Notes under the pieces: generated by a model | Told to the model about the DNA's origin: nothing | Databases searched by the model: none | What the model saw: the letters and a program-made list of their open reading frames with translations, nothing else | From: an archaeon | GTDB lineage: Archaea; Iainarchaeota; Iainarchaeia; Iainarchaeales; CSSED10-239 | Length of the DNA: 32,000 nt | Direction: 5' to 3' | Assembly (NCBI GenBank): GCA_041657425.1 | Contig: JBBABY010000005.1 | Span: 60,001 to 92,000 of the forward strand | Shown: piece by piece, positions 16,762 to 28,912 of the stretch | How positions within the stretch are numbered: position 1 is the first letter of the stretch | Layout of the letters: each line of letters starts with the position of its first letter | Translations under genes and position numbers: made by a program

Positions 16762-16834
16762 CTTTACAATTAGTTTAGAAAATTATGTAATAAACAGTTT
16801 ATAATCTTTATTGTTAATTTTGGCAATCGCCAGA

Positions 16835-16842
16835 TTTATATA
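16835..16842 (+). promoter_or_regulatory. Candidate TATA box for the leader/tRNA-Ser(UGA)/tRNA-binding-protein transcript
   Basis: tttatata lies about 25 nt upstream of where the GC-rich leader begins (16866). The call is positional only. Confidence 0.25.
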
Positions 16843-16865
16843 CATTTTTGCTCATAAAATATATA

Positions 16866-16993
16866 TTTGCGGCCAATTTGTAAGGTTATTGTGTGGAAAT
16901 AGTAAACTATTGCGCGCTAACCTCAAAAAAAATACACGGTATTTTTTAGGATCCTAAAAAATCAGTGATTTTTTATGAGAGCGCAACCGGTTT
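16866..16993 (+). other. GC-clamped structured leader element, copy A (upstream of tRNA-Ser UGA)
   Basis: attgcgcgc (16909-16917) comes first. Hairpin 1 is aaaaaatac/gtatttttt (16927-16947). aggatcc follows. Hairpin 2 is taaaaaatca/tgatttttta (16955-16975). gcgcaaccgg (16981-16990) closes the element. It is collinear with copy B. Confidence 0.5.
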
Positions 16994-17038
16994 AGTTAAC
17001 TAGAGAAGAAACGCCTATGAACTGGGCGAACAGTTAAA

Positions 17039-17121
17039 GCAGAGATGGCGGAGTGGCCAAACGCGCCAGCCTTGAGAGCTGGAGTCGAAAGACTACGCGA
17101 GTTCGAATCTCGTTCTCTGCG
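17039..17121 (+). tRNA. tRNA-Ser (anticodon UGA), class II
   Basis: Acceptor stem is GCAGAGA/TCTCTGC and the D-stem is 3 bp. The anticodon stem CCAGC/GCTGG carries loop CTTGAGA. The long variable arm is AGTCGAAAGACTAC. The T-arm is GCGAG-TTCGAAT-CTCGT and the discriminator is G. Confidence 0.9.
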
Positions 17122-17145
17122 CTTAAAATTGTTAAAAGATCATTT

Positions 17146-17484
17146 ATGTCAGAAGAAAAACCAATCATTACTTTTGATGATTTCATAAAATTAGACATAA
17201 GAATAGGAACAGTTATAGAAGCAGAAAAAGTACCAAACAGTTCAAAGCTTCTAAAGCTAATAATTGACTTTGGAGATTTTAAAAGACAAATACTTGCAGG
17301 AATTGGTACCAAGTATTCTCCTGAAGACTTACAAGGTAAACAAATACCAGTAATAGTTAATCTTGCACCAAGAAAGATGGCGGGGTTAGTTAGTCAAGGA
17401 ATGATTATGGCTGTAGGGGATAATGATGTGGAAGCTCTTTTGTTTCCAACAGAAGCCGTAAAATCAGGAAGTTCAGTTCACTAA
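17146..17484 (+). CDS. tRNA-binding domain protein (Trbp111/CsaA/EMAP-like OB fold)
   Basis: DIRIGTVIEAEKVPNSSKLLKLIIDFG...ILAGIGTKYSPEDLQGKQIPVIVNLAPRKMAGLVSQGMIMAV matches the tRNA_bind signature. The start is moved to the ATG at 17146 because the listed 5' extension overlaps the tRNA. Confidence 0.85.
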   Translation: MSEEKPIITFDDFIKLDIRIGTVIEAEKVPNSSKLLKLIIDFGDFKRQILAGIGTKYSPEDLQGKQIPVIVNLAPRKMAGLVSQGMIMAVGDNDVEALLFPTEAVKSGSSVH

Positions 17485-17499
17485 AAGGAAGGGTAAATT

Positions 17500-17769
17500 A
17501 TGGATAAAATTAAAATAAATTATTTTATTGATGTTCTATTAATAATATCATTTATTGTAGTAGCAATAACAAGCCTTGTAATATTTTTCTTTCTTCCAAG
17601 TGGAGTAAGACAAGCAGGTTATCAAACATTTTTAGGATTAACAAAACATTCATGGGGTAATATTCATACAATCTCAGGATTTGCAATGATAATTCTGTCA
17701 TTGATACATTTGATATTACATTTCAAATGGTTAACAACAATGTCAAAAACAATATTTAAGAAAAAATAA
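17500..17769 (+). CDS. Small membrane protein, DUF4405-like
   Basis: Two or three TM helices with conserved His spacing (WGNIHTISG...LIHLILHFKW). Confidence 0.5.
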   Translation: MDKIKINYFIDVLLIISFIVVAITSLVIFFFLPSGVRQAGYQTFLGLTKHSWGNIHTISGFAMIILSLIHLILHFKWLTTMSKTIFKKK

Positions 17770-17774
17770 TTTAG

Positions 17775-17902
17775 TTGTGTGTCGATAAGCAACCAGTTAG
17801 TGCCATACAAATTCTGGCTGGGCGCCAACTCAGGAAAACAAAAGTTTTCAGGATGCCAAGAAATCGCAGCGACGATTTGTTGTGCACGACCGCAACCGGT
17901 TG
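17775..17902 (+). other. GC-clamped structured leader element, copy B (abuts tRNA-Ser GGA)
   Basis: ctggctgggcgcc (17814-17826) comes first. Hairpin 1 is gaaaac/gttttc (17834-17849). aggatgcc follows. Hairpin 2 is aaatcg/cgattt (17861-17878). gaccgcaaccggttg (17888-17902) closes the element. The order matches copy A, with different but still complementary stem sequences. Confidence 0.5.
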
Positions 17903-17903
17903 T

Positions 17904-17986
17904 GCAGAGGTGGTGGAGTGGTCAAACGCACTAGCCTGGAAAGCTAGAGTCGAAAGACTACGCGAGTTCGAATCTCGTCCTCTGCG
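17904..17986 (+). tRNA. tRNA-Ser (anticodon GGA), class II
   Basis: Acceptor stem is GCAGAGG/CCTCTGC. The anticodon stem CTAGC/GCTAG carries loop CTGGAAA. The variable arm is AGTCGAAAGACTAC. The T-arm is GCGAG-TTCGAAT-CTCGT and the discriminator is G. Confidence 0.9.
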
Positions 17987-18202
17987 ATTAAATTTAGATC
18001 AACAGTTTGCTGTAAGTGAGCTTGTAGACTGGATTAAAGGCAAGAAGCTCGCCCACGACTACGAAACAGGACTAATTTCTAAAATCCCGCTAATCTTCGA
18101 AGATACTCAAAAACATACGTACGTTTCTGAAAAGTGTTCTCAACAAAATCTTTTTAAATACAATATACAATAACTATTTATAGAAATAAAGTGTGATAAA
18201 AA

Positions 18203-23958: not shown

Positions 23959-23962
23959 ATAT

Positions 23963-23980
23963 TGCGCGCGAGCTGAACGC
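23963..23980 (+). repeat. Left arm of an 18-bp GC-rich inverted repeat (partner at 28851-28868)
   Basis: tgcgcgcgagctgaacgc vs the reverse complement of 28851-28868, tgggcgcgagctgaccgc, gives 16/18 identical. It also shares attgcgcgc with leader copy A. Confidence 0.8.
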
Positions 23981-24072
23981 TGTCGTTTTTGGGATGAAGC
24001 ACTTTTTCTAAAAGGGCTCCACTGGACAGCTACCCCCGAAAACTTTAAACACTATTTCTTTCATAGTTATTT

Positions 24073-28423: not shown

Positions 28424-28759
28424 ATGTTAGATTTACTTAAAAAAAAAGAAGATACAAAGCTTAGTGTTGATTCATTTATTTTAGACTCATGTAAAGCAAC
28501 ACCTGGTTTTGAGTTTTTCCCTAAGAAATCCACAAAGATTGATTTAGAGAAATTATTAATGACTTTAAGGACAAAGAACTACTATATAGAAAAAGATAAT
28601 TCTCCATTTCTAATAATTATAAAAACAAAAAAAGGAACAGTTACTATTTTTAGTTCATTAAAAATAATAATTAGAGAAACAACACAAGAAAAAGTTGCAA
28701 AAGCAATACTTACTGATCTCTTAAAAGTAATAAACGATTTTTTGTATAAGCAAGGGTGA
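28424..28759 (+). CDS. Small protein with a single TBP-repeat-like domain (hypothetical)
   Basis: KIDLEKLLMTLRTKNYYIE...KGTVTIFSSLKIIIRETTQEKVAKA parallels one TATA-binding-protein repeat (lDLekla..l....YePe.FPGl..r...pk...liF.SGKiv.TGaks.e.a..A). The last 10 nt overlap tRNA-Ser(CGA). Confidence 0.45.
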   Translation: MLDLLKKKEDTKLSVDSFILDSCKATPGFEFFPKKSTKIDLEKLLMTLRTKNYYIEKDNSPFLIIIKTKKGTVTIFSSLKIIIRETTQEKVAKAILTDLLKVINDFLYKQG

Positions 28760-28839
28760 CTGAGTTCGGTTGAAGGTGCTAGTCTCGAAAACTAGATGCG
28801 GTTTATACCCGCACATGGGTTCAAATCCCATTCCTTGCG
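28750..28839 (+). tRNA. tRNA-Ser (anticodon CGA), class II
   Basis: Acceptor stem is GCAAGGG/TCCTTGC with one G-U pair. The anticodon stem CTAGT/ACTAG carries loop CTCGAAA. The long variable arm is GCGG-tttatac-CCGC. The T-arm is ATGGG-TTCAAAT-CCCAT and the discriminator is G. Confidence 0.85.
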
Positions 28840-28843
28840 TAGA

Positions 28844-28912
28844 GCCGGTTGCGGTCAGCTCGCGCCCAGCCTGGTTTGAATATCATGCACTACTCGGTTT
28901 CGCTTGCGCACA
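28844..28912 (-). other. Short-form copy C of the GC-rich leader element, inverted, abutting the 3' end of tRNA-Ser(CGA)
   Basis: The reverse complement reads aagcgaaaccgagtagtgcatgatattcaaaccaggctgggcgcgagctgaccgcaaccggc. This is alignable to 17787-17826 plus 17888-17900 of copy B but lacks the two hairpins. It contains the right IR arm (28851-28868). Confidence 0.6.

Follow-up and report, generated by a model that had tools for sequence, protein, structure and literature searches.

Two tRNA-Ser leaders of a DPANN-type archaeon as probable arrays of a small structured repeat confined to one archaeal family

The window analysed here, 32,000 nucleotides (nt) of contig JBBABY010000005.1 in assembly GCA_041657425.1 (positions 60,001 to 92,000; C5:60001-92000 in our contig numbering), comes from an archaeon of the Iainarchaeota family CSSED10-239. 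It carries three transfer RNA (tRNA) genes for serine, two of which, tRNA-Ser(UGA) and tRNA-Ser(GGA), are preceded by long GC-rich elements that we call copy A and copy B. A sequence-only reading of the window described these leaders as homologous and collinear, with a GC clamp and two hairpins, and so they read: clamp, one strand of a 5-base-pair (5-bp) stem, hairpin 1, AGGAT(C/G)C, hairpin 2, G(A/C)(G/C)CGCAACC and the strand that closes the stem follow each other in both (Table 1). That reading also in effect took them for a dedicated leader of tRNA-Ser genes. Our comparison of related genomes and metagenomes shows that they belong to a dispersed repeat family, one that is confined to a single family of DPANN-type archaea and is probably selfish.

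Both leaders are composite. That of tRNA-Ser(UGA) consists of a probable decayed module, the copy A unit, a 24-nt spacer, a decayed core and AAA, which puts the 3' end of copy A 45 nt from the tRNA; this 45-nt spacer is conserved ahead of a tRNA-Ser in genome G016 (contig C59) and in metagenome contigs L292 and L328. The leader of tRNA-Ser(GGA) begins with a decayed core 5 nt past the upstream stop codon and continues with the 17-nt type-B spacer, the copy B unit and one T, which is all that separates copy B from G1 of the tRNA. As pointed out before, this 1-nt gap has no space for a promoter, and the natural inference is that copy B would be co-transcribed with its tRNA as a 5' leader. The shared "ttgtgtg" that had been counted as part of both leaders is, in copy B, the clamp of the decayed upstream unit, as comparison with an intact TGTGTG-clamp core 5' of tRNA-Ser(GGA) in genome G017 (L101) indicates. 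In copy A it probably has the same origin, within a probable decayed clamp-type module; this resembles the clamp-hairpin-GAAAYC modules that accompany many cores of related genomes on their 5' side. The type-B spacer recurs ahead of cores at C2:136350 and C7:48890, at 28871-28891 (reverse strand) of the window, and in 52-nt tandem units of genome G012. The cassette of copy A is a near-perfect palindrome centred on AGGATCCT, both strands of which fold equally well, and the fold energies of copies A and B correspond to z = -4.4 and z = -2.2.

Table 1. Leader elements, related short units and tRNA-Ser genes in the window (R1 and R2, short-core and long-form covariance models; P1, the 5-bp stem)
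Feature	Position	Strand	Basis
Probable decayed clamp-type module (ATTGTGTGGAAATAGTAAAC), holding the "ttgtgtg" of copy A	16889-16908	+	read by sequence
Copy A, long form: putative pseudoknot core plus type-I AT-rich near-palindromic two-hairpin cassette (16923-16978)	16909-16994	+	R2, 58.2 bits
Copy A, clamp	16911-16916	+	sequence
Copy A, P1	16918-16922 with 16989-16993	+	sequence
Copy A, hairpin 1, followed by AGGATCC	16926-16935 with 16939-16947	+	sequence
Copy A, hairpin 2, followed by GAGCGCAACCGGTT	16955-16964 with 16966-16975	+	sequence
Clamp-less decayed core (GAACT-GGGCGAAC-AGTT), 3 nt ahead of tRNA-Ser(UGA)	17019-17035	+	sequence
tRNA-Ser(UGA)	17039-17122	+	ARAGORN; Rfam tRNA, 59.3 bits
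Decayed short core with TGTGTG clamp (GTTGTGTGT-CGAT-AAGCAACC-AGTTA), the "ttgtgtg" of copy B	17774-17799	+	comparison by eye
Type-B spacer (GTGCCATACAAATTCTG), 17 nt, preceding CTGGGCG-clamp cores	17800-17816	+	recurrence
Copy B, long form: putative pseudoknot core plus type-II two-hairpin cassette (17831-17887)	17817-17902	+	R2, 89 bits
Copy B, clamp	17819-17824	+	sequence
Copy B, P1	17826-17830 with 17898-17902	+	sequence
Copy B, hairpin 1, followed by AGGATGCC	17833-17839 with 17844-17849	+	sequence
Copy B, hairpin 2, followed by GACCGCAACCGGTTG	17858-17866 with 17873-17881	+	sequence
tRNA-Ser(GGA)	17904-17987	+	Rfam tRNA, 58.7 bits at 17904-17986; ARAGORN 17903-17987
Degenerate short core (ATTGCGCGC-GAGCT-GAACG...), 3' stem strand lost	23961-23985	+	nhmmer, E = 1.5e-4
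tRNA-Ser(CGA)	28750-28839	+	ARAGORN, Rfam
Intact short core (GCTGGGCGC-GAGCT-GACCGCAACC-GGCTC), 3' end 2 nt from the 3' end of tRNA-Ser(CGA)	28842-28870	-	R1, 42.9 bits
Type-B spacer plus remnant of a further upstream unit (GTGCGCAAGCGAAACCGAGTA)	28871-28912	-	comparison with type-B units

Short forms without the hairpins had been reported at two other places in the window, and both are there. The first, just past a stop codon and ~40 nt ahead of a module with the sequence CACTGGACAGCTACCC, is degenerate; the second is an intact core behind tRNA-Ser(CGA), and the rest of the stretch assigned to it is spacer and remnant. The sequence CGCAACCGG occurs four times in the window against 0.3 expected. 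The claim that the leaders match no known class of RNA agrees with our searches of Rfam (release 15), which gave only tRNA matches over the whole window at the gathering score and, at E up to 10 over 16780-18020, nothing that overlaps copy A; a marginal match to sX4 (12.3 bits, E 9.6, 17895-18020) overlaps the final 8 nt of copy B.

The basic unit of the repeat is short (~30 nt) and GC-rich, for example ATTGCGCGC-GAGCC-GAGCGAAACC-GGCTC, with a second subtype CTGGGCGC...GACCGCAACC. Its core is made up of the clamp (TTGCGCG or CTGGGCG), the stem P1 and a GAGCG/GACCG-(A/C)AACC loop. The long form is the same unit with ~55 nt added, a cassette of two hairpins that is placed between loop and 5' stem strand and comes in two interchangeable subfamilies (type I and type II). 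Because copies A and B carry different subfamilies, the differences between their stems, which had been put down to covariation, are a difference of cassette and not in-place covariation; for this pair the earlier argument does not hold, whereas across the family it does. Compensatory change, which had been proposed for the hairpins, is seen in clamp and hairpins in the pairing statistics of many aligned copies. For the long form we compared 18 copies (alignment A4) with 500 shuffles and with slid partners: 91.6% of cells are paired, against 81.4% in shuffled and ~40% in slid alignments, and 56 cells have changed on both sides against 20.5 expected, a value matched by none of the 500 shuffles. 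In the short core (alignment A3; 92 copies, 79 of them distinct), P1 is 97.2% paired and shows compensatory change at four of its five pairs, with GAGCC/GGCTC, TAACC/GGTTA, CAACC/GGTTG, GAACT/AGTTC and TGACC/GGTCA among its variants.

The clamp in turn pairs with the loop, T-G-N-G-C-G against C-G-A-N'-C-G, through T.G, G-C, N-N', G.A and C-G. The N-N' pair is CG in 50 copies of A3, GC in 18, UG in three and UA in one, counts that two subfamilies could explain in part. This helix has one co-varying pair, two pairs with one-sided changes that keep pairing, and one conserved G.A, and since A3 was fitted to P1 only, the signal is not derived from the model. Clamp helix and P1 interleave, and the core may be read as an H-type pseudoknot with a loop 1 of 1-2 nt and (A/C)AACC as loop 3. 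General rules for pseudoknots allow loops of 1-2 nt and 5 nt, and the junction, where the hairpin cassette sits, is the place where such folds tolerate insertions. Conserved unpaired motifs are (A/C)AACC and AGGATGCC, together with a G.G within hairpin 2. A variant module that often lies just 5' of the core (ATTGCGG-ATAA-CCGCGAAATC, CGTGC-ATAA-GCACGAAATC) forms the clamp helix as a plain hairpin, and it co-varies too. The fold belongs to one strand, given that G.T exceeds A.C in P1 (22:6 in short copies, 21:5 in long copies) and that the clamp T.G is nearly invariant; by the same strand-specific excess, the folded strand of copies at tRNA 3' ends is antisense to the tRNA.

The source genome, G000, is a 1.10-Mb assembly in 20 contigs with ~29% GC and 80% completeness. 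Motif and nhmmer searches found the clamp with its hairpin at 15 places beyond the leaders, and the genome holds 13 strong short cores and three long copies. A covariance-model search, which had been suggested as a check, brought up many further homologs in the genomes of the family and in metagenomes. We ran the short-core model R1 on 22 genomes of the family and on an even order-level sample, which comprised 16 family genomes plus 134 that represent 31 other families. Copies were present in 17 of the 22 (1-18 each, giving the 92 aligned short copies); in the order-level sample, 11 of the 16 family genomes matched, as did none of the 134 others. The long-form model R2, run on the family genomes, returned 31 long copies: three in the source genome, most others in six congeners, and single ones in two other genera. 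Metagenome contigs, scanned with a pattern, yielded 16 more long copies, and contigs L313 and L337 carry a copy identical to copy B ahead of tRNA-Ser(GGA). Contig L337 (Ga0209835_1003812, 6826 nt) has two tRNA-Ser(GGA) genes 5.6 kb apart, each behind a different long copy. Carriage of the repeat by viruses was considered and rejected: the core pattern had no match in viral contigs, and in a 14-mer scan of viral contigs (at least 119 stretches) all 80 loci among the matches listed were chance matches.

Many copies lie precisely at tRNA ends. Of the short copies (92 in all), 31 lie within 0-3 nt of a called tRNA: the 14 at 5' ends share the strand of the tRNA, and the 17 at 3' ends are on the other strand. 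This is an undercount because some tRNAs are truncated or uncalled. The context table was made by ARAGORN without its intron option, which missed most tRNAs at short loci. The genes concerned are for Ser (11), Leu (10), Gly (3), Thr (2), Asn (2), Ala (2) and Arg (1). Among the long copies, 16 of 31 abut a tRNA and two more lie 42-45 nt upstream with another module between. In every case it is the 3' end of the element, its final P1 base, that faces the tRNA. For the source genome, our own arithmetic (37 called tRNAs, 889 kb of host contigs) gives ~0.003 abutting copies expected, and 7 of ~18 abut. Over all copies, Ser and Leu are dominant and Gly, Asn, Thr, Ala, Glu, Ile and Arg also occur. 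Nine types of tRNA by amino acid have copies ahead of or behind them, those at 3' ends lying on the other strand, and the supposed specificity for tRNA-Ser is lost. Other copies abut the CACTGGACAGCTACCC module or a conserved feature ending in CCCAAAAGTTAAAAGCGCAC, follow stop codons, or lie within open reading frames (ORFs) or in plain intergenic DNA. Scatter over non-tRNA sites was what the sequence-only reading itself had named as speaking against a dedicated tRNA-Ser leader, and we have to abandon that view.

Two features of these neighbourhoods may be described here. Units repeatedly abut or precede a GC-rich module, (TTG)CACTGGACAGCTACCCCCGAAAA, as at 23961-24044 of the window and at loci L137, L083, L071 and L024, and ~15 copies of this module are among the GC-rich islands of the source genome. 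In G012, two loci (L061, C30:21900-22695; L063, C12:18500-19250) hold tandem arrays that repeat every 52 nt over 4-6 units, each unit being a conserved 21-nt spacer and a 31-nt core, and one array lies upstream of tRNA-Ser(UGA).

Copies also lie inside protein genes. The ftsY gene of the source genome, whose identity Pfam SRP54 domains (residues 237-526) confirm, has two short copies, both in the acidic N-terminal part of the protein, and one further copy is present in an ORF of contig C1 and one in an ORF of C12. None of these four departs from the sense strand or from the frame that reads I-A/V-R-E-L/P-x-E-T-G-S. P1 pairing is kept in the ftsY copies. At the first ftsY site, the source genome has a short copy, G013 and G017 have long ones, and G011, G012, G014, G015 and G018 have none. 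At the second site, the G014 copy has one extra base, and its 5' half reads LRASP instead of IAREP with the nucleotides still conserved, a frame change which places the conservation in the nucleic acid, not in the peptide. A conserved peptide motif (IARELSETGS) was considered and is ruled out by this frame change, by the GC-rich codons in a 29% GC genome and by the stem pairing. The third long copy of the source genome (L039:549-638, C12:6548-6637) is likewise in frame, in a 305-aa ORF without a Pfam domain, and encodes IARELMTTGGSQDPKKSREDLLSASKTGS.

Turnover of the repeat shows in identical copies, exchanges and empty sites. Recent copying is indicated by two pairs of copies that are 100% identical over ~85 nt in unrelated flanks: one in G014, ahead of tRNA-Ser(GGA) on C17 and beside a CTGGACA module on C1, and one between G018 (C30, ahead of tRNA-Leu(CAA)) and G013 (C16, ahead of tRNA-Ser(UGA)). 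Identity begins 2-4 nt 5' of the clamp and ends at the final P1 base. Neither pair is flanked by a target-site duplication, and the two element ends that the pairs define are not inverted repeats of each other. Filled and empty ftsY sites suggest a possible 9-bp duplication in G013 only, in a comparison that is ambiguous. The median pairwise identity of long copies is 60%. Between copy B and its ortholog in G014, which follows the same upstream gene, the flanks and both core halves are ~97% identical and the cassettes, type II and type I respectively, cannot be aligned, which amounts to a swap. Metagenome copies show a mosaic pattern as well, in which one 5' half is joined to different hairpin-2 tips (GCC/GGC vs CGC/GCG).

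Orthologous spacers between tRNA-Val(UAC) and tRNA-Leu(AAG) are a further example: a short core is present in the source genome, G012 and G014, each with a different co-varying stem, a long type II copy in G018, a long type I copy in G013 and a composite in G017, and the spacer is empty in G015 (25 nt, vs 89 nt in the source genome) and in G020, where it is AT-rich. With such different states at one spacer, and with copies on the opposite strand at tRNA 3' ends, the element does not keep the place, the orientation or the presence in relatives that a dedicated 5' leader should have. An empty-site comparison at tRNA-Gly(CCC) was discarded, the G018 locus not being syntenic with that of the source genome. 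G015 belongs to the same genus as the source genome (5 contigs, 84% complete) and has no short and no long copies by R1 and R2. Upstream of both its tRNA-Ser genes the DNA is AT-rich and element-free. A TATA-like AAATATATATTT upstream of tRNA-Ser(UGA) is common to G015 and the source genome; together with the element-free leader of G015, this suggests that a tRNA leader exists either way and that the element was inserted into it.

Taking these results together, we give a probability of roughly 60% to the explanation that each of these tRNA-Ser leaders is a composite array of a small, non-autonomous, structure-dependent selfish repeat, transcribed passively as the leader of the pre-tRNA. It is favoured by the confinement to one family, the variation in copy number down to zero in G015, the identical copies in unrelated flanks, the exchange of cassettes, the decayed copies, the tandem arrays, the in-frame insertions in coding sequence, and the fold lying on the strand antisense to the tRNA at 3' ends. 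As to how such a repeat propagates and is transcribed, we infer that the unit would be copied or converted whole, from a few nt 5' of the clamp through the final stem base, with no target-site duplication made and no recognisable transposase gene. It would land or persist chiefly where its 3' end meets the 5' base of a strand that forms a cloverleaf, the sense strand leading to a position upstream of the tRNA and the antisense strand to one downstream. Disordered Glu/Lys-rich coding regions would tolerate it, one of its frames giving the hydrophilic peptide IARELSETGS. Upstream of tRNA genes, it would be transcribed passively in the 5' leader and then removed by RNase P. The covariation of the stems would come from a need of the fold for propagation, and recombination among copies may add to it.

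A bolder version is doubtful, and we offer it tentatively: a structure-guided, transposase-less mini-element, built as a pseudoknot with an exchangeable cassette, might recognise the cloverleaf that single-stranded DNA of a tRNA gene can form on either strand, and home to its 5' base. That the 3' end of the element always faces the tRNA, sense at the 5' end and antisense at the 3' end, would follow from such homing.

Several points weigh against a selfish repeat. In the source genome, at 80% completeness, we found no mobilising enzyme: Y1 transposase (PF01797) had no matches, no reverse transcriptase was found, and TnpB is present only on contigs C3, C15 and C20. Lack of terminal inverted repeats and target duplications could mean gene conversion rather than transposition. 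Maintenance of the fold at 60% median identity, and the link to tRNA-Ser 3' ends in three genera, could mean a selected function. Nucleotide-exact abutment with fixed polarity is unusual among known selfish repeats.

Such a selected function might be that of a cis-acting RNA, in which pseudoknot and hairpins are a selected part of pre-tRNA transcripts and might keep GC-rich tRNAs from pairing wrongly with their AT-rich flanks, fix the RNase P or tRNase Z cleavage sites, or stabilise precursors, with the greatest benefit for Ser and Leu tRNAs. We judge this unlikely. The strong covariation, the abutment within 0-3 nt, the share of Ser and Leu genes (~60% of tRNA-linked copies), the recurrence of the tRNA-Ser association in three genera and the lack of promoter space behind copy B would all suit it, but the element lies on the opposite strand at tRNA 3' ends, and the nearly invariant T.G and the G.A of the clamp form only on the element strand. 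Copies within ftsY and other ORFs, a cassette that is swapped or absent at orthologous sites, and a congener, G015, that manages the same tRNAs without any copy are also hard to reconcile with it. Less probable still is a site that a protein would recognise, in DNA or in RNA, at the borders of highly transcribed genes, where it would serve as boundary, terminator or roadblock against antisense or read-through transcription into tRNA genes, or else as a regulatory operator. Here the mirror-symmetric polarity at the two tRNA ends, the conserved unpaired motifs ((A/C)AACC, AGGATGCC and the G.G of hairpin 2) and the copies that abut the conserved CACTGGACAGCTACCC module are set against in-frame coding copies, the 52-nt tandem arrays of G012 and the absence of copies from G015; no candidate binding protein was identified, and no regular oligo-T run follows the element.

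We see only a slight chance that the element is a stand-alone small RNA, riboswitch or self-cleaving ribozyme of ~90 nt with a pseudoknot and two hairpins, which, with no Rfam match, would be of a new class. Its compact pseudoknot geometry with an A-rich loop 3 and its covariation are what one would look for in such an RNA; no consistent promoter or terminator accompanies it, however, copies occur in ORFs and antisense to tRNAs, and the cassette is optional and interchangeable. HDV-like (hepatitis delta virus-like) ribozymes downstream of tRNAs have their cleavage site at the tRNA end, and the geometry of this element puts none there. The least credible alternative, to which we attach almost no weight, makes the GC-rich flanks leader and trailer of split or permuted tRNA genes, pairing as a bulge-helix-bulge substrate. 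The sequence ahead of tRNA-Ser(GGA) is indeed complementary to that behind tRNA-Ser(CGA), but it arises from inverted copies of a repeat that occurs dozens of times, each of the three tRNA-Ser genes gives a complete cloverleaf, no adjacent tRNA is less than full length, and by eye no bulge-helix-bulge motif could be drawn at the cassette borders.

Three other candidates were rejected. A repeat like those of CRISPR (clustered regularly interspaced short palindromic repeats), suggested by the GAAAC tail and the 52-nt tandem units of G012, does not fit because the 21-nt "spacers" are conserved between units. Hammerhead, HDV-like and theta-type ribozymes were set aside because the CUGA...GAAAC likeness is partial, there is no Rfam match and no cleavage would fall at the tRNA end. 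The AT-rich 3' arm of hairpin 2, ~-29 to -20 from +1 of the tRNA, could be taken for a TATA box of a leaderless tRNA, but the cassette as a promoter fails as a general explanation since short cores abut tRNAs without any AT-rich stretch and antisense copies would drive antisense transcription.

In the way it works, the element is like the Rickettsia palindromic elements (RPEs), mitochondrial GC clusters and repetitive extragenic palindromes. RPEs are short, structured, lineage-restricted repeats of a small AT-rich genome, have no transposase, terminal inverted repeats or target duplication, and occur in intergenic DNA, beside RNA genes and in frame in protein genes, where they add a tolerated peptide. 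The archaeal element, too, has both intergenic and in-frame ORF copies whose nucleotides are conserved rather than the peptide. RPEs are bacterial, are simple palindromes of 100-150 bp and, their hosts being in another domain of life, would not be expected to be homologous to it in sequence, and to our knowledge they show no nucleotide-precise polar abutment to tRNAs, pseudoknot core or exchangeable internal cassette.

A further comparison is with the GC clusters of yeast mitochondria (PMC4478555). These and the GC-rich PstI palindromes that flank tRNA genes of Neurospora mitochondria resemble the element as GC-rich hairpin repeats in a very AT-rich genome, and differ from it in being organellar and eukaryotic and in sharing no sequence with it. 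Both are mobile by an unknown mechanism, often lie beside tRNA genes and have sometimes been proposed as processing signals. We know of no report of a fixed polarity at both tRNA ends, or of a pseudoknot with a cassette, in either.

Repetitive extragenic palindromes and bacterial interspersed mosaic elements (REP/BIME), with their RAYT transposase, a Y1 protein of IS200/IS605-like type, share with the element an imperfect palindrome of ~30 nt behind a conserved 5' motif, a hairpin that contains G.T pairs and is specific to one strand, covariation of the stems from copy to copy, and tandem clusters. They differ in having a RAYT/Y1 partner, none of which was found in the 80%-complete source genome, in being extragenic where the present element is also in ORFs, and in showing no targeting of tRNA borders. 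The MITEs, or miniature inverted-repeat transposable elements, are likewise small, non-autonomous and multi-copy, with long and short forms, and the element is a dispersed small non-coding unit with 92 short and 31 long copies in the family genomes. Unlike MITEs, it has no terminal inverted repeats, no target-site duplication in the pairs of identical copies and no parent transposon, and its copies are far more diverged (60% median identity) yet still pair. By their defining tests it is neither a MITE nor a REP/RAYT element.

Some further observations concern the tRNA genes and RNAs of this archaeon. Directly after tRNA-Ser(UGA), window positions 17146-17484 encode a stand-alone tRNA-binding-domain protein (PF01588, Trbp111/CsaA-like, 112 aa), and this gene and an 89-aa ORF resembling small membrane proteins are syntenic between both tRNA-Ser genes in G013 and G015. 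A tRNA-Thr-like remnant, AGCTCCAGACGCGCTC(TT)ACCCAAAAGTTAAAAGCGCAC, occurs twice in the source genome (L003:911-1003 and L003:2547-2620, that is C2:136310-136402 and 137946-138019). It consists of the acceptor 3' strand of tRNA-Thr(GGU) and an anticodon-arm-like stem, without a T arm; a repeat unit abuts one copy and interrupts the other, ~10 nt upstream, the opposite strand has a TTTAAATA box, and the part ending in CCAAAAGTTAAAAGCGCAC recurs beside elements of G006 and of two metagenome contigs (L306, L314). The remnant may be a small RNA that is conserved, or else part of a tRNA that is split or degenerate. For RNase P RNA, the source genome has a single candidate (L001, C11:37078-37320), which at 58.4 bits is under the Rfam cut-off of 84 and would be either a reduced or a divergent RNA; the Archaea_SRP model matches at 124.7 bits. 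Contigs C3, C9, C15 and C16 have 37-62% GC against ~29% elsewhere, with a tRNA array and a TnpB gene on C3, and probably belong to viruses or other organisms binned with the genome.

Titles and abstracts of the literature gave no account of such an element in DPANN archaea, and we found no earlier description of its nucleotide-precise, polar association with tRNA borders or of its swappable cassette. New here are the long-form family with its covariation statistics, the reading of the clamp as part of a pseudoknot and the polarity rule, as well as the identical copies, the cassette swap, the empty sites of G015 and the confinement to one family. For annotation, dozens of GC-rich "ncRNA-like" (non-coding-RNA-like) islands in these reduced archaeal genomes become one repeat family, which guards against naming them new leader RNAs, split-tRNA signals or small RNAs, and the element can be used as a metagenome marker for the archaeal family. 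If the homing to cloverleaves is true, tRNA genes would be recognised here in a new manner, and DPANN archaea would have an undescribed insertion activity, host-encoded or trans-acting. If the repeat is selfish, as we think probable, DPANN genomes of ~1 Mb carry an active structure-dependent selfish repeat, by which the leaders and trailers of tRNAs are reshaped and peptide segments are added to essential proteins such as FtsY.

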